A DNA stretch of 64,000 nt from Glycera tridactyla (lineage: Eukaryota): the NCBI GenBank assembly GCA_965644265.1, contig OZ286473.1:50282001-50346000 (forward strand). The letters are read 5' to 3'. The notes under the pieces were generated by a model. It did no database searches. It had not been told where the DNA came from and worked only from the letters and a program-made list of their open reading frames with translations. Shown here in pieces: positions 43,100-52,128 of this stretch (positions are counted from its first letter, which is position 1; each line of letters begins with the position of its first letter). A program made the position numbers and the translations under genes.

Positions 43100-43330
43100 C
43101 ACTTAGTGCAGAAGCACTGCAGTTCTCTCCCAGTGCATGCCGACTGGGATATCAAAGGCCTGCCGTGTTTACAGGAGTCTCTTCCTGTACGCACATAAAA
43201 GAACCCTCGCTGTCTTTCGCAGAGAGTAGGGATGGCCCCTGGCGGCGGTGACTCTTTTTCTCAGCATTTTCAGTCCAATATAATCCAAGCGGGTTTAAGT
43301 GACCTTAAAATCAAACAAACAAACAAACAA
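43100..43330 (+). mobile_element. SINE fragment, possibly with a Deu/Nin-type core; its 3' part is repeated at about 43660-43760 and inverted at about 36925-36995
   Basis: GCACATAAAAGAACCC...AGAGTAGGG core recalled as Deu/Nin-like; shared 3' end GTGACCTTAAAATC(AAAC)n. No clear tRNA head. Confidence 0.45.
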
Positions 43331-44010
43331 CTACCCGTTGAATCTTGATATATTCCCCAAAGCTGTCCACGAACGGGCCTATGATGGCAATATTGGTAGC
43401 AATTGCCACGCATAGCGCAGTCATTGTGTAGTGCTTGCCGCTTGTAGCACCGTTATCATGAAGCAGTTGCTGCGCATAGAGCGGTCATCGTGTAATGGTT
43501 GCCGCGCATGGCACCGCCACGCCCAAGCGTCATCTAGCAGTTGCAGGAGAGGCTGCTTTTTAGTTCAGGTCCAAACCACAGGTTTCTTGTTCGTATAGAG
43601 ATGGGTGAAGTTCCCCAGCAGGAGTGCTCAAATACCGCCGCCAGGGGCTGTCCCTACTCTCTGTGGTGACTCTTTTCTTCAGCATGTTCAGTATTTTCAG
43701 TCCGATATAATCCAAGCGGGTTTAAGTGACCTTAAAATCAAACAAACAAACAAACAACTACCCGTTGAATCTTGTTATATCCCCCCAAAATTTTGACGAT
43801 GTTGAAGATCCATCCTGTTTTCCAGCCTCCTCTTGGCGGCCGCAGGCCGCCTGCGGGGGAGCTGTCCACGAACTGCCCTATGACGGCAATATTCGTGTAG
43901 CACCGTTATTGTGTAGCAGTTGCGGCGCATAGCGCGGCCATTGTGTAATGGTTGCCACGCATAGCACGGCCACGCCCAAGCATCATCTAGCAGTTGCAGG
44001 TTTCTTGTTT
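43240..44010. repeat. Imperfect tandem duplication (SINE 3' tail plus a GC-rich segment), period about 420 bp
   Basis: GGTGACTCTTTT...CAAACAACTACCCGTTGAATCTTG...GCTGTCCACGAAC...CACGCCCAAGC.TCATCTAGCAGTTGCAGG appears twice. Confidence 0.8.
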
Positions 44011-44610
44011 GTATAGAGATTTTCAGATGCTTATTTATGGTGATCAGGGTATGCCAATTTTCGACTGACCACTCAGAAATGATATATACATTCACAAAGT
44101 ACCTTCATGTATTGATGACTATTCTTTCAAAGCTGGGATTTTTTAAATAAATAACTATCAATTGTCTGGGCAGCTTGTCACATGTGCTTCTTGTTGACAT
44201 CTTTTGGCCAAATACTCTCCAACCCACACAGAAAAATCGACAAAGTCTTTCATCAGTGAGTGCTCCACTGTATCTGTGTGAGATACACTGTATAGTGCAT
44301 ACATAAAAATAATATTATGAAGTAATATATTTTCGGTGGTGGAACCTGAGTCTTGCCTTCATCATAACACCCCACGACAGGCTTGGAGGCCACTCCTGGC
44401 CAATCAGCTACCAGGAATCTAGGTCACAGCAGCAGGGGCATCATGCAAGGTGCATCACTACCAGCGATGGTCCCCTTTCCTCACTGGCAGCAGCGTGAGT
44501 CGGACGTGTTGTCGAGAAATCTAATCAGTGCACCTCCACGTTTTTACCCCCTGTACCACCATAACCTGGTTACATCACCTCTTCTACCAGTAAGTCTACA
44601 CTGTATTATC

Positions 44611-45303
44611 ATGGCTGTAGCTCTATTGACAGGCCACTCATTTATCAGGCGTTTTACTGATGACAAACTATCCCGTTATCGTGGTCCTGATGTAGATTCA
44701 TCAACCCCTCATGCTGCTGCTCTCCTAGCGGTCCGTGCTGGCTACCATGATGGGAGATATTGCAGCCATTTATATACTGCTGCCAGTGAGGTTAACCTAA
44801 TCCATCAACTGCATAATGATAAGGCAAAGATAGAAATTGACGAGATCCAAGCCAGACATATACTTATAGACATTGGAACGAATGACATCGCGCAAATGCA
44901 CGCCGAAGATGCACTCGCTGCCGAAAATCTAGTGGCCAAAACTCATGTCAAAGCAGCCGAAATGATCTGCGATCACCATTCCGTACGCTCCGTGGTTATA
45001 TTTTCTGTCATCCCAAGGAATGATCGGCGTTTAGCAGCTGATGAATCAACATTTAGATTGAACATGGCCCACTACAATAGAAAGTTGAAACAATTGTGTC
45101 AGCCAAAGGATGGATTACACTTTGAAAGGCTCCGAGGTTTTACTAGCGTTGGCGTGAATAATGTGCCACTCGAAGTAGAAACCTGGAGTGACGACCACCT
45201 ACACTTTCGAGTAGCCCCACCAGGCACTGACACAGAATCTCCCATGGATCGATATGCAAAACGGGTGTTCTATGCAGTTAGAAATTTTTTGCATGATCAG
45301 TGA
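44611..45303 (+). CDS. SGNH/GDSL-family hydrolase (esterase), 230 aa from ATG 44611, of the type associated with Ngaro elements
   Basis: Block I LLTGHSFIRR (Ser), block III IDIGTND (Asn), SVIPR motif, block V SDDHLH (DxxH). Uninterrupted ORF, open back to 44383. Confidence 0.85.
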   Translation: MAVALLTGHSFIRRFTDDKLSRYRGPDVDSSTPHAAALLAVRAGYHDGRYCSHLYTAASEVNLIHQLHNDKAKIEIDEIQARHILIDIGTNDIAQMHAEDALAAENLVAKTHVKAAEMICDHHSVRSVVIFSVIPRNDRRLAADESTFRLNMAHYNRKLKQLCQPKDGLHFERLRGFTSVGVNNVPLEVETWSDDHLHFRVAPPGTDTESPMDRYAKRVFYAVRNFLHDQ

Positions 45304-46656
45304 AACATAAGCATGATATAAGCCAGTTTGAACCACTTACCTAACTTTAACAACCCTCATAATGAGACCAGATGATCGTGATACCCTGTTGAGGGCCCAG
45401 TCAGGGGTTTTGAAAGTGAACAAGGTGAAATGACGTCACTACGCTGTCAGGAAATCCCGCAGATACACACGTATCACACAATGCTCCAATTATCGCTCAC
45501 GCGTGACGCGGCGCTAATATTCGATTGCCGGGCTTAGCTATTCATACTTTTTATTTCACTTTTTATTTCACAATAGCTTGTGGTGACCCATAGTCCCCAG
45601 AGTATCATGATTACATATGTATATCAAAACATACACTTTCAAATTCAATCCAAAATCATTATTATAAGTTAAAAGAAAATATTTACATATACAGTTGAGC
45701 CTGTCTATAGGGGTCGCCTTCGGTCGCACCAAAAAGTGGTCCTTACAGACAGGTGGTCTTTGTAGAGAGGTGGTCTTTATAGAGAGGTGGTCCTTGGGGC
45801 AGATTTGACTGCTCAGTTGTTCACCACAGTGACCAGGTGACTCACCTGGTCACACAAAGCATATTGATCAATCCATTTTTAAGCTTGATGCTAGTTCATA
45901 TGCATACCATCTTCCACGTCCACACCTGCCGGCATCTCGAGCTAATATATTAACTAGAGAGCTACTGACACTGCCATCCGCACCTTGGCTAACCATTACT
46001 AGTCATGTGCTCACCAAATTCCTCGTCAGGTCACTCTCATCATTGTTCCATCATCCACTTGCTATACCAATCACCAGGGTATGACCCCATACCTACAAGT
46101 TCATGTATTGCTTTTCAAAGGTCCTCTTTCCTCGTCAGTCATGGCTTTCACATGAGATTCTCAGGTGTACGGCCAATGCATCAGGGGATTCAGTGAACCT
46201 CACATTACACCATTCCAACCCACTGGCTTTTGCACTTGTCATGATCGGTTGCCTCTGGGTTAACATGAGTCTCTCAGGTACACAGCCCATCCGGTCTCAA
46301 GGAATAAGCAGATAACATGGGTTCTCTATATTTCATATTCTTTACCAAGGGGCACCACGCCCACCCCCCGATTATCCTGGTCACATGCACAGTAGCTATT
46401 GCATGAGTGACTCAGGCATACTGCTGGTGCTGGGTGATCCGGGAGATCCGTTTCTTTATCATTTCCACCCCTCAACCTTTAGCCTCTCCATCATTCATCT
46501 AGTTATTCCCTCAATTGGAAATGATGGCCTCAGTTGCAACATGAGTCCCTCAGGTGTGCAACTGGCCCAGCAGACCCTCTCTCAAATAATGGTTTCATGC
46601 GAGAGGGGTCGGCGACAATCAAGCATGGTTTGAAATAGATCTAATTCTGTTAAACA

Positions 46657-47838
46657 GTGCCTCCAAAAGAGCGCAAAAAGCGGGGGAAAAATCTCCAAGC
46701 CCTGCATCGAACCCTGACCGATCTGCAGGAGAGAGTGTCGCATGTCGAAGAATTAGAACGGAAAGTGACTGAGATGGAAGAGGCCTTAGAAACACAGCGC
46801 CCAAAACGCATGCGTAAAACCAAACGGCCATTCACACCTAGTGCTACTGTTGTTGACATTGATGAAAATGTGGGTGTCAACCCATCGCCTGTGCGTCCAC
46901 GAACCACTGACATGATCCGATGTGCCATTCCTCCAGCAGCGATAGCAATGACTTCCACCCCGACAGCCAATATGGGCCAAGGTAATATGCACAATCCCTC
47001 AGAGGCAGAATGGGCACAGGGTCTTACTAACCCGGATTCTATACAACCACTATTTACTCCAACCATCAATATGGCTGACCGACCAACAGTGAAACACAGC
47101 ACCATTGCTGGCACAGCCGTTGATCCAAAGGTGAAAGAAAAGATATGGTCCAATACTTATGTACCCATGGCCCAACTCTTGCGTGACTTCTTCGAGGAGG
47201 AGAACGACACTCTGACCTTTAAACAGGGCAAGTTGAGTGTTGCGACTCCGCGTGCAAAGCTGCTACGCAGTTTTGATGCATGGCAAACAGCATGGGAAAA
47301 TTTCATGGCGGTTTACTGCGAGATACTGTCGAATCGGGCTGAAATTGGGGAGCTCATCACCTATGGGCGGACAGTCCGAAAACTATTCAAGAATGGGGGG
47401 CGATGGGCAGAATTTGACCATGCATTCCGGTGGGAACGCCAATTCCGGGTCTGTCCTTGGTCTGCTGTAGCACCTGAACTGGAAAACGAATTTCGTGGCC
47501 GCCAACCATACGAAACAACAAATCGAAAACCACAGTCCTTTCATGCCGACAACCAGACCCCTGAGATCCCCAATGGGTTTTGTATCAAATTCCACACACG
47601 AGGGACACGTTGCTCAAATAACGAGACCTGTAGATACAAACATGCATGCTGGCAGTGCGGTTCCCGGCACCCAACCTATAGACCATGTAACTCACAGGGA
47701 AAAAACAACCAGGCAGGGTCTACCCAGGATCAACCCAATCAATCTGGCTCAACCGGGAATGGGACGATCAAACCTAAATTCACCGGACAAAGCCATGTCG
47801 GGAAAAATGCCCACCCCAGTGCGCATAAAACAGCTTGA
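46657..47838 (+). CDS. Gag-like protein of the YR retrotransposon; no genomic ATG (GTG CCT CCA AAA)
   Basis: 393-codon ORF with VDPKVKEKIWSNTYVPMAQLL, SFDAWQTAWENFMAVY, WAEFDHAFRWER and a C-terminal Cys/His cluster (FCIKFH...C...CRYKHACWQCGSRH...C) typical of DIRS/Ngaro gag. Confidence 0.85.
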   Translation: MPPKERKKRGKNLQALHRTLTDLQERVSHVEELERKVTEMEEALETQRPKRMRKTKRPFTPSATVVDIDENVGVNPSPVRPRTTDMIRCAIPPAAIAMTSTPTANMGQGNMHNPSEAEWAQGLTNPDSIQPLFTPTINMADRPTVKHSTIAGTAVDPKVKEKIWSNTYVPMAQLLRDFFEEENDTLTFKQGKLSVATPRAKLLRSFDAWQTAWENFMAVYCEILSNRAEIGELITYGRTVRKLFKNGGRWAEFDHAFRWERQFRVCPWSAVAPELENEFRGRQPYETTNRKPQSFHADNQTPEIPNGFCIKFHTRGTRCSNNETCRYKHACWQCGSRHPTYRPCNSQGKNNQAGSTQDQPNQSGSTGNGTIKPKFTGQSHVGKNAHPSAHKTA

Positions 47839-49383
47839 ATTTTATTTGAAGTCATATGACGATGTCAAGAAGAGCCACTTATTGGACGGTTTTCGTGATG
47901 GTTTTAAGACTGGCCACGCGGGAGCAATCCTGCCCAATTTGGATACACGCAACTCACCGAAAACCATGATAAGACCTTCAGTGGTTTCCGAAAAATTAGC
48001 TGAAGAAGTAAAATCTGGCCGAATATCCGGGCCTTTCGAATCACCTCCATATGACGTTTTCAAAATTTCCCCCTTATCATTGAGACCAAAGAAAGAACCA
48101 GGCAAGTTTAGGCTAATCCATGATCTATCTCACCCATATGACGACAGCGCCATCAATGCAAATATTCCAGATTGCAAGAAGGCGGTTAAATACACAGATG
48201 TAAAAGATGCTATTGCGTGTATCCAATCACTTGGTCAGGGATGTTTCCTAGCTAAATCTGACATAAAGAATGCTTTCCGGCTCATACCGATTGATCCATC
48301 AGAACATCATAAGTTAGGTATGACATGGGAAGGTCTTTATTATTTTGACAATTGCCTACCACAAGGGCTTGGCAGCTCTTGCCAAATATTTGAATCCTTT
48401 TCCGAAGCCATACAGTGGGCCTTCACTTCACAGTTCCCAGCTGCATCTATCATCCACTATTTGGATGATTTCTTATTCCTATCGAAAGATAGGCAGATCT
48501 GCCAAGAATACCTGAATGGTTTCTTGACCCTCTGCCGAGACATGGGGGTCCCAATTTCACCCGGGACGACATGTCCCCCTTCTACCTGTCTACCATTCCT
48601 GGGTATTGAGCTGGACACCTCGGCATTTGAGGCCAGACTTCCCCGTGATAAGATCATAGACCTTCTTGACACCATCAATGGAAGTCGAAAATTACGAAAT
48701 ATGACCTGGAATCTTTGGCTGGAAAACTCAATTTTGCAACAGGGGTGCTTCCGGGTAGAGCTTTCATTAGACGTATATATGATACCTTACCTCGTGTGAA
48801 AAAGCCATACCACAAAATTAAGGTTTCCAGATGGTTAAAAGACGACCTTCGCATTTGGTTGGAATTTTTGGAACATTTCAATGGGATCAGTCTTTTTCGA
48901 AAACATGTCTATGCGAATGATATCGCTTTCTATACTGATGCATCAAAGCTGCATGGGATGGCTGGCTGTTATCGAAGTCACTGGATCCAGGCAAGCTGGC
49001 CGAAGTCCTGGCAAATTTATGATATTAATTTACTCGAACTGTTCCCGATCTTAGTCCTGATTGCAACATTTGGTTCCCAGTTGAGGAACACTCACATAAC
49101 TTTGTACACCGATAACATGACTGTGGTTCACGCAATTCAAAACCAATCTTCTAAAAGCAAAACGATCATGTTTTTGTTAAGATCCCTGATTGCTATATTT
49201 CTGCGATACAATATATCTGTTTCTGCCAGACACATCCCTGGTGTCAACAATATCCTAGCTGACAGAATATCACGGTTTCAGGTAACGCCAGAATTGTTGA
49301 AGACACATGGCATGGACAAGCATCCTACTCACATACCGAACCATCTGCTGCCCGAAAACTTCACCATTCCATGTCGATCCTGA
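47795..49383 (+). pseudogene. Reverse transcriptase-RNase H (pol) of the YR retrotransposon, with one frameshift near 48680-48705
   Basis: TPV...GFRDGF, GRISGPF, SPLSLRPKKEPGKFRLIHDLS, KSDIKNAFRLIP, LPQGLGSS and HYLDDF in frame 1; DLESLAGKLNFA, FYTDAS, INLLEL, YTDN and HIPGVNNILADRISR continue in a shifted frame. Confidence 0.9.
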
Positions 49384-50282
49384 TAAAACAAAGTTTGTCA
49401 CACAACACATGCCGTTCATATGAAAAGAGCTGGCTGAAGTTTTTCTATTTTTCCACACAGACTCTTCGCAAAACGAGTCCTTTCCCTGCTGATAGGGATG
49501 ATATTTCATTATACATTACCTATCTCGCTGACAATGGCAAAAGGGCCTCAACGATACGCACACACTTATCTGCCCTAGCATTTGCTCACAAGATCAATTT
49601 CCAAATAGACCCAACAAGTACTTTCAGAACAGCCGAATTACTGAAAGGAGTGTTGCGGCGAAAGGGCCCTGGTGCAAAACGAAGTCCAATTGGCATCCGA
49701 TTGCTCCACTCTATACTTCTGGCCGTAAACAAGACAATACCTGATAAATATGACAAATATCTATACATGGCCCTGCTGGCACTCATGTACCATGCATGCC
49801 TAAGAATCAGTGAGGTAGCAGCCACTAACATTACCTCCCACATTCTACGCCGGGAAAATATACTGGTGTCCAAAAGACCAAATGATGTTCCAAAAATGTA
49901 TCTACAGTTCACATCCTATAAGCACTCAGAGGGAAATGTCCCAGTGCTGACAATACTGCCACGCACACATTCGTGGTCCTGCCCACTGGCCTTATATCAG
50001 CAATTCAATAATATTGCATCTGCGACACGAAAATATGCATTTTGCAGCAAAAGTGGCAAACCCGTCACAAGGACAGCAGTCGCCAAGTTATTAAGACATT
50101 GCATATCTTCCTTGGATCTCCAGGGAAATTTCAACACCCATTCACTACGCATAGGGAAAGCAACAGACATGGTAGCAGAAGGCTTCACAGATGAGCAAAT
50201 TATATCTTTTGGGCGTTGGCGTTCCAATGCTTTCAGAGCATATATTCGCCCAAGTGCCATCCACATGCCCCTAGCAAAGTGA
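49371..50282 (+). CDS. Tyrosine recombinase (YR), 303 aa, apparently intact
   Basis: Catalytic set present: R (ACLRISE), K (SYKHS), HxxR (THSLRIG), W and Y (GRWRSNAFRAYIR). N-terminal SHNTCRSY and YITYLAD; overlaps the RNase H stop. Confidence 0.95.
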   Translation: MSILIKQSLSHNTCRSYEKSWLKFFYFSTQTLRKTSPFPADRDDISLYITYLADNGKRASTIRTHLSALAFAHKINFQIDPTSTFRTAELLKGVLRRKGPGAKRSPIGIRLLHSILLAVNKTIPDKYDKYLYMALLALMYHACLRISEVAATNITSHILRRENILVSKRPNDVPKMYLQFTSYKHSEGNVPVLTILPRTHSWSCPLALYQQFNNIASATRKYAFCSKSGKPVTRTAVAKLLRHCISSLDLQGNFNTHSLRIGKATDMVAEGFTDEQIISFGRWRSNAFRAYIRPSAIHMPLAK

Positions 50283-52128
50283 TACAGAGGGATGCTCTCT
50301 TTTCTCTCTTCTCATACAGTTGGCCACTTGCAATTTCCTTTTTATTTTTATTTATTTATTTATCTTTTTCATTGCCAGTCATGGCCATTTTCCTATGATA
50401 GCCAACTGTTATAAATATTATGAAGCAAAATGATACCTGAAATCACCCATGAGTTGTCTCAGGGGTGAGGCACAGGTCATCCTCTAGAACATTCTTTGTC
50501 AAAATCCACCCTGAGGATTGGTCATGAGTTGTCTCAGGACCACCCTTCCTCAAGGTTATTCTTAGATCTGAGGTTATCCTCAAAAAGCAATAGTGTTAAT
50601 ATGCATTGAGTTGGTTCATGAGTTGGCCTCAGGATCTGACACACATGCTTATTGCCACTGCACAGTTGTGTAGAGGGACATGAGTTGTCTCAGGCACCTC
50701 TGCACAATCTTGCACACTTATGAGGTTGTATTGTATAGAATTAACACATTCAAATACCTGGTATTGCACCACATCCTGGCTCAGACACAGATGGGATCCA
50801 ATACAGGAATAGATCATGAGTCGGAATGTGGTTGAATGTGCCTTGTGGTGACAAGGAGCACCAAAGGCACATTCCATCCAATTCATCCACTATATTTGTA
50901 AACCTTTCTATGACATGTTTTGATATCAAATTTGTTGACAGGCAAGATCATGGTTCTCCTTTTCTCTGGATCTGAAACCGAAAGTTCATGCTTTTACCTA
51001 GTCTGTCAAGAGCGGACTCAAGATAGCACACTATTAGATTCCGTTCATATCAAAATGTGACTCATGTGTCAGTATCTGGCTGTTGAGATATAACTGGAAC
51101 TGTGAATGGTAACTCTCCACCAGGTACCTACCTTGAGCAAAAGAGTAGCCTTATTGAGGATGGCTGTTGCCAGCCTTGATGTAGGTGAGACAGATGAGGG
51201 ATGCAGCAAAACTGTGTTTGAATTTTCNNNNNNNNNNNNNNNNNNNNNNNNNNNNNNNNNNNNNNNNNNNNNNNNNNNNNNNNNNNNNNNNNNNNNNNNN
51301 NNNNNNNNNNNNNNNNNNNNNNNNNNNNNNNNNNNNNNNNNNNNNNNNNNNNNNNNNNNNNNNNNNNNNNNNNNNNNNNNNNNNNNNNNNNNNNNNNNNN
51401 NNNNNNNNNNNNNNNNNNNNNNNNNNNNNNNNNNNNNNNNNNNNNNNNNNNNNNNNNNNNNNNNNNNNNNNNNNNNNNNNNNNNNNNNNNNNNNNNNNNN
51501 NNNNNNNNNNNNNNNNNNNNNNNNNNNNNNNNNNNNNNNNNNNNNNNNNNNNNNNNNNNNNNNNNNNNNNNNNNNNNNNNNNNNNNNNNNNNNNNNNNNN
51601 NNNNNNNNNNNNNNNNNNNNNNNNNNNNNNNNNNNNNNNNNNNNNNNNNNNNNNNNNNNNNNNNNNNNNNNNNNNNNNNNNNNNNNNNNNNNNNNNNNNN
51701 NNNNNNNNNNNNNNNNNNNNNNNNNNNNNNNNNNNNNNNNNNNNNNNNNNNNNNNNNNNNNNNNNNNTGCCATCCTTTTAGGGCCTACTGGCGTAGTTTT
51801 TTAATCCAATCTGTGTCAAGACTATGTTTTAGAATCGACCATAACTCCAGTCTCAAATAATCCTGCCTAGGTTGACGACACGTTAAGCCCCACTCAATCA
51901 ATCAATGGATGACTCATGTGAAAGTGAAAGTGAAACAGCACCTGGTGCTCTTCGCACACGAGGAGGACACCCGTATCTACTCTCTGCTCCCCGACCCATT
52001 TACTCGAGCGATTGGACTTCAGTGGAAGAACCCGGATGACAAAGTGAAGGAAGTGAATGTGTATCTTTCAACCTGCAACCAACTGTCAAACTGGACTACA
52101 GCTTTAGCCAGCTAGCGAAGTGCTGAAA

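Follow-up and report, generated by a model that had tools for sequence, protein, structure and literature searches.

The closest described systems to the element reported here are DIRS-53_XT and DIRS-54_XT of Xenopus, two Ngaro-like tyrosine recombinase (YR) retrotransposons with an SGNH hydrolase open reading frame (ORF) after the YR (PMC9210276). Our element lies on the + strand at positions 44305-50983 of a 64,000-nucleotide stretch of the Glycera tridactyla genome (GCA_965644265.1, contig OZ286473.1, 50,282,001 to 50,346,000; hereafter the window, whose numbering and + strand apply to all features below). It is itself a YR retrotransposon, with the gene order SGNH esterase, gag, reverse transcriptase/RNase H (RT/RNase H), YR. 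Both systems comprise A1-ORFs-B1-A2-B2 repeats, gag, RT/RNase H and YR genes, no methyltransferase and an extra SGNH ORF. In the Xenopus elements, as the available part of that paper describes them, the hydrolase comes after the YR and the frames overlap, whereas here it comes first, is separated from gag by 1.35 kb and sits within a predicted intron. The available text of PMC9210276 contains no occurrence of 'splic' or 'intron'; the function of the Ngaro hydrolase is called unproven in the literature, which, in the portions available, is silent on expression of the overlapping genes.

A start codon assembled by splicing, AT|G, is found in the env mRNA of Drosophila gypsy (PMC2585583). There, as proposed here, the end of the 5' exon and the acceptor side together make the start codon, and the protein depends on splicing. 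Gypsy is however a long terminal repeat element, its codon is divided as AT|G, and splicing there serves the accessory Env, with Gag made from unspliced RNA; in our element the codon would be divided as A|TG, the core protein Gag would need splicing and the accessory gene would be the intron. The plant Ty1/Copia element EVD produces a short spliced subgenomic GAG RNA beside its full-length RNA (PMC5580714) and likewise dedicates a spliced RNA to Gag, but its splice, centred on the protease region, lies past a gag start of the usual kind and is linked to early termination, and the available text mentions no nested gene or split codon. Penelope-like elements are retroelements that keep a 5' intron in their genomic copies (PMC8557442), but the introns described, of 75, 398 and 751 nt, are not reported in the available text to hold a gene or a split AUG. 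The available portions of PMC6681497, PMC8547959 and PMC7599744 hold nothing further on splicing in YR elements. Our literature search found no 5' hydrolase or spliced gag described in YR retrotransposons; the main review, Repbase and the supplements, which may note the layout, were not covered. The original prediction had held that no description of the arrangement was known, which stands for the YR-element literature searched but not for the splice-made start codon as such, given gypsy env (PMC2585583).

Comparison of genomic DNA copies indicates that splicing very probably supplies the Gag start codon of this element, through an RNA switch that we infer. In the window, the gag frame (46654-47838) has its first methionine at residue 41. 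Exon 1 is predicted to end at 44589 with the A of the AUG, followed by the 5' splice site GTAAGT at 44590; the feature as a whole spans 44586..44595, with the Kozak -3 base at 44586. The predicted intron of 2,068 nt (44590..46657) contains the entire esterase ORF, whose ATG at 44611 lies 21 nt past the donor, and its 3' end (46641..46657) consists of a branch-point-like CTAAT (46641-46645, A at 46644) and a CAG 3' splice site with its AG at 46656-46657. The gag exon would begin with the TG of the split start (46658..47838) and encodes a CCCH-like zinc finger near the C-terminus (Pfam zf-CCCH, a weak match with E 0.02 on copy L041). A scripted join of 44589 to 46658 gives ATG as the first codon and a frame open for 393 aa. 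The coordinates, intron length and 21-nt spacing given in the original prediction were all correct on recheck. The GTAAGT at 44590 is the sole one on the + strand of the element, and the sole other GTRAGT is a GTGAGT at 44495. By a rough estimate from base composition, the chance of a YAG before the TG is ~0.03 and that of an A-GTRAGT within 30 nt of the esterase ATG is ~0.004; the comparison between families, below, tests the sites more strongly. The number of ATG triplets is 47 between donor and acceptor and 26 between the esterase stop and gag. A host interspersed repeat also lies inside the intron (45690..45811); it has many copies elsewhere in the window and is carried by the copies of the window's family.

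The other copies compared come from the same 2.04-Gb genome. Family 1, the window's own group, consists of copies that are 96-98% identical, and the cross-family comparison used one copy per family, with esterases 35-88% identical to that of the window. Within family 1, the donor is intact in 13/13 and the acceptor in 15/15 of the copies that keep the region. Across families, the donor reads A|GTRAGT in 12/12, with variable bases at positions -2, -3 and -5. Position -4 is not a splice determinant; it is the Kozak -3 base of the joined AUG, and is a purine in all 12 families (A in 11). The acceptor reads YAG|TG in 10/10 families and is preceded by T at -16 (9/10), A at -14 (8/10) and T at -13 (9/10); the intron just upstream of the acceptor has an identity to the window of 0.44-0.53 in 7/9 families, against 0.49 for shuffled sequence. 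Joining yields ATG in all 8 families that have both ends, with introns of 1,384-2,105 nt, and the joined frame extends over 386-514 aa in five copies and meets an early stop in three broken copies.

No other copy carries the plain gag ATG that a simple mutation in the window would lead one to expect. Among 35 further loci examined, 20 have a gag start (19 YAG|TG, 1 YAG|AG), and all 35 copies with a gag start, from 10 families, comprise 34 YAG|TG, one YAG|AG and no contiguous ATG. A genome-wide search for the gag-start motif returned 20 matches, all at places already known and preceded by CAG (18) or TAG (2). Codons 2-40 of gag have ratios of nonsynonymous to synonymous substitution (dN/dS) of 0, 0.13 and 0.05 against L055, L056 and L057, respectively. 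This purifying selection argues that they are likely translated, with initiation at or before codon 1. The proposed donor at 44590, branch point, acceptor, A|TG start and placement of the esterase in the intron are all backed by conservation across families.

The ORF within the intron (44611..45303) encodes a 230-aa SGNH/GDSL esterase with GHS, GTND and DxxH motifs, and matches Pfam PF13472 with an E value of 5e-5, below the curated cut-off. Its predicted model has a predicted local distance difference test score (pLDDT) of 84, and the fold matches PAF-AH and Axe2 in the PDB with E about 2e-5. Residues N91, D195 and H198 are invariant across the esterase alignment, and the gene is under purifying selection (dN/dS 0.08-0.12). 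The modelled protein has an SGNH fold with the Ser, Asn and Asp-x-x-His motifs; ester cleavage is its putative activity. In 9/12 families no other ATG comes between the donor and the esterase start; the remaining three are broken copies. A high-copy host repeat is inserted between donor and esterase ATG in L077-L079 and L081, where it shifts the ATG to 240 nt past the donor and adds none of its own.

The esterase is linked to gag, and 5' of it, wherever both genes were found in a locus of this genome, down to 25% esterase identity, and at 19/20 further loci; the Xenopus-type layout, with the hydrolase after the YR and overlapping frames, is not matched by the loci of this genome. An RT-profile search of metagenomes gave 80 loci, 22 with the esterase 5' of gag and most of the others too short to tell. 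Three metagenome loci have the esterase after the YR, >700 nt away; they look permuted or tandem, because at that place two of them match the 5' end of a close relative and the third has redundant termini. Searching the genome with the esterase gave 146 matches among the 150 places scored of 1,116 candidates. Esterase-first YR elements are a large and diverse group in this genome. The closest outside proteins are P0001 and P0002, with 59-66% identity. A search for gag homologues gave one protein, as did a word search for the esterase; the viral contigs searched gave no match, and the sequence search of solved structures gave weak matches alone.

Unsplit relatives have an intact gag ATG, with gag beginning MPPK. 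A YAG is found <=12 nt upstream of this ATG in 26/32 callable unsplit starts (15 at 0-1 nt), vs 493/1450 control ATGs (Fisher p 8e-8); the corresponding count for the esterase ATG is 10/31. The 32 starts are 9 from this genome and 23 from metagenomes, some without a visible esterase. Since unsplit relatives mostly have an acceptor just before the ATG, a spliced Gag mRNA is likely general among them, and the split codon is likely a variant of one clade. An RT tree was built from 87 rows whose core is unbroken, none of them a named Ngaro, PAT or DIRS1 sequence; it was rooted at the midpoint and excludes split copies with a broken RT. In this tree the 6 split rows lie on one side of a branch with a Shimodaira-Hasegawa-like approximate likelihood-ratio (SH-aLRT) value of 98. 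Seven candidate donors with A at -1 were found in unsplit relatives; their -4 bases are C, G, C, A, G, T and C (L103, L106, L107, L129, L132, L223 and L230). The exon-end A in these relatives suggests how the split arose: the relatives would share a layout with an acceptor before an intact ATG, many with a donor that has A at -1, and in one clade the genomic A could be lost, since the end of the exon provided one. An intron could plausibly come to divide a start codon in this way.

In the mechanism that we propose, a single promoter in A1 would drive transcription from near 44475. A pyrimidine-rich box at 44472..44480, the presumed transcription start, aligns across split families, and the unsplit relatives L223-L228 have a similar box ~25 nt past TATAAAA; from these we infer a start near 44475, downstream of the ATGs at 44443 and 44467. 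On unspliced RNA, which would also be the template for new copies, the esterase AUG inside the intron would come first, and Gag could not start because of the 47 intervening ATG triplets and the absence of its own AUG. Excision of 44590-46657 would delete the esterase and join A to UG in a strong context, giving Gag. Two features would keep splicing partial: the A at donor -1, which departs from the consensus, and the small distance from branch to AG. The split start specifies an exact junction (44589/46658), and the model predicts that no RNA gives both esterase and Gag, and that a wide range of related elements need the host spliceosome to make Gag. Annotation based on ATG would start gag 40 codons late or call the genes dead. 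The depletion of ATGs in the leader (4 observed, 17.9 expected) was not used, as the start motif was missed in 4/12 families and the argument is partly circular.

Two further splice sites of the original prediction fared less well. The GTGAGT at 44495..44500, proposed as a second donor, does join in frame (44494/46658), but its GT is replaced in L055, L056, L061, L062, L063 and L070. Because the GT is lost while the surrounding box persists, the site looks more like part of a promoter. Support is also lacking for the CAG at 44588-44590 as an acceptor for an esterase mRNA: this triplet is YAG in just 9/12 families and has no conserved upstream donor.

Other explanations of the missing gag ATG have to be weighed against a splice-made start. 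Without any splicing, Gag might begin at the GUG of 46657-46659, either on unspliced RNA through re-initiation or internal entry, or on a shorter transcript that an internal promoter produces. The GTG is in frame in all split families except for one copy, the conserved codons 2-40 fit any upstream start, and intron-less copies were not found. This reading, which we consider very unlikely, does not account for the YA that invariably precedes the GTG, for the T-N-A-T at -16 to -13, or for an A|GTRAGT so far away that has a purine at -4; L071 and L078 have a C 3 nt ahead of the GTG, the 26 ATGs noted above separate the esterase stop from gag, and the acceptor occurs at the same place in unsplit relatives too. 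It is highly improbable that the acceptor is real and used with another partner, be it the 44495 GTGAGT (which would extend Gag at its N-terminus), an exon of the host or a leader added by trans-splicing. The GT at 44495 is absent in six diverged loci, and ATG 44467, with which it joins in frame, is absent in L059-L063, L070 and L071, even though that GT is present in family 1, L057, L064 and L069. Copies lie at unrelated sites and therefore have no shared host exon, and a leader from elsewhere would need a terminal A and would not account for the conservation of the cis donor.

That the GTG is a point mutation of ATG, with splice-like motifs arising by chance and copies that are dead or use Gag made elsewhere, has a next to negligible probability. 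The contiguous ATG before PPK in unsplit relatives and the broken pol of the window copy are what it would lead one to expect, but 0/35 copies have the ATG, in 10 families down to 35% esterase identity, gag codons 2-40 are under purifying selection, and the identity and intact frames of the family 1 copies (96-98%) argue for recent spread.

Several points weigh against the splice-made start itself. Among the best candidates of the searches, neither the split families nor four unsplit families yielded an intron-less copy; a retroelement might be expected to leave some such copies, so their absence counts mildly against splicing unless spliced RNA is excluded from copying. The 12/12 family counts are not independent, owing to shared ancestry, and the window's own group has a weak pyrimidine tract (47-59% in 5/10 families). 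The A at -1 is common in unsplit relatives too, so it is not by itself proof of a role in the codon. The acceptor count in these relatives excludes 12 further gag frames without a callable start, 0 of the 23 metagenome gag starts called are split, and all split families come from one genome. Finally, the splice model needs the presumed transcription start to lie downstream of 44443 and 44467; with a start upstream, these ATGs would open frames of 68 and 60 codons, respectively, that overlap gag out of frame.

The 44589/46658 junction is not found, at likeness 90 or 80, in contigs from runs X1-X5, which have a depth of ~1-13 outside the host repeat, with very high depth over it, and are RNA only by guess in X1-X4 and of unsure kind in X5. 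The donor is bridged unspliced by contigs from X1 (44549-44635) and X5 (44514-45318), and the acceptor by contigs from X1 (46416-47353) and X3 (46543-46693). As all of these runs are possibly DNA, unspliced bridging is no evidence either way. A break in the X5 contigs at 46654-46665 is only a hole.

The element contains 10 TGAG-N3..6-CTCA hairpins vs 0.4 in shuffled sequence; the motif usually belongs to a longer stem that has an A.G mismatch beside it. Four TGAG-N3-CTCA hairpins, a candidate RNA signal, are located in the 3' part of the intron (46153, 46266, 46404 and 46542, within 46153..46552), and five more of these motifs are in B1 at ~50450-50690. Most of the split families checked retain the hairpin in their B repeat, and some also have it in the 3' part of the intron (seen in L042, L055-L059, L073, L075 and L078); it is a candidate Gag-binding or packaging signal. 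We raise as a possibility, one that falls somewhat short of probable, that a widespread YR lineage runs the retroviral splicing logic backwards: genomic RNA would give esterase only and be the packaged template, Gag would come from spliced RNA only, and the split AUG would act as an all-or-none lock. Host control of one splice would then be a switch between enzyme and particle, and the intron hairpins would mark unspliced RNA for packaging, which would explain the lack of intron-less copies.

The left end of the element is the split direct repeat A1 (44305..44519), which likely bears the promoter and is repeated as A2. A2 sits between B1 and B2 in copies L041-L046, and in the four copies compared there are 1-3 differences between A1 and A2 over 205 nt. 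The A1...B1-A2-B2 structure is complete in L041-L045, with its 3' part present in L046, and a 55-nt unique spacer separates A2 from B2. The RT/RNase H region (47471..49383) is in two frames in the window copy (47471-48799 and 48670-49383) and a single 640-aa frame in L041, L043, L044, L045 and L049, and is followed by the YR ORF (49263..50282; Pfam PF00589, E 1e-8, and PF02899). Among the element ORFs, RVT_1 and Phage_integrase score above the Pfam cut-off, the RNase H match is weak, and gag has just the weak CCCH match. The 640-aa pol of L041 extends only ~35 aa past its RNase H match and gave no methyltransferase match at E<=1, and no matching pair of inverted termini was found at the element ends, where direct repeats are present instead. 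The absence of a methyltransferase after RNase H is a Ngaro-like feature (PMC3266345), and split direct repeats together with a methyltransferase are a PAT-like one (PMC7192593). With gag, RT and YR ORFs, split direct repeats and no methyltransferase match, the anatomy of the element is thus Ngaro-like (order DIRS), as judged from the available text of PMC9210276, PMC3266345 and PMC7192593. It does not fit the DIRS1-like type, which has inverted terminal repeats, an internal complementary region and a methyltransferase domain, given its direct repeats and the undetected methyltransferase; the latter also sets it apart from the PAT-like type in spite of the split repeats.

In intact copies, gag and the pol frame share an overlap of 370-590 nt (47471-47838 in the window). 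Most families have Leu or another residue in place of Met before the PTPV motif of pol, and Met is not conserved there. A second split start, for pol, at the CCA-GTG of this motif was rejected, as the codons vary among split families. The B1 repeat occupies 50384..50983, where the window copy stops without A2-B2. Four copies (the window's, at 50983, and L047, L050 and L051) stop precisely at the B end in this way, possibly through loss of A2-B2 by B1-B2 recombination. Internal deletions in L051, L067 and L190, of two families, all start at the 3' end of A1 with short microhomology, which suggests that during reverse transcription an unfinished cDNA can switch to the A-repeat end. These deletions were rejected as intron-less copies, because they start at the A1 end and remove or bypass the donor. 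The element ends share a short A-run with their flanks and show no obvious target duplication. Directly left of the element, at 43129-44020, is a repeat that is in part duplicated, has 32-nt subunits and includes an inverted pair; pieces related to it also occur near several other element loci.

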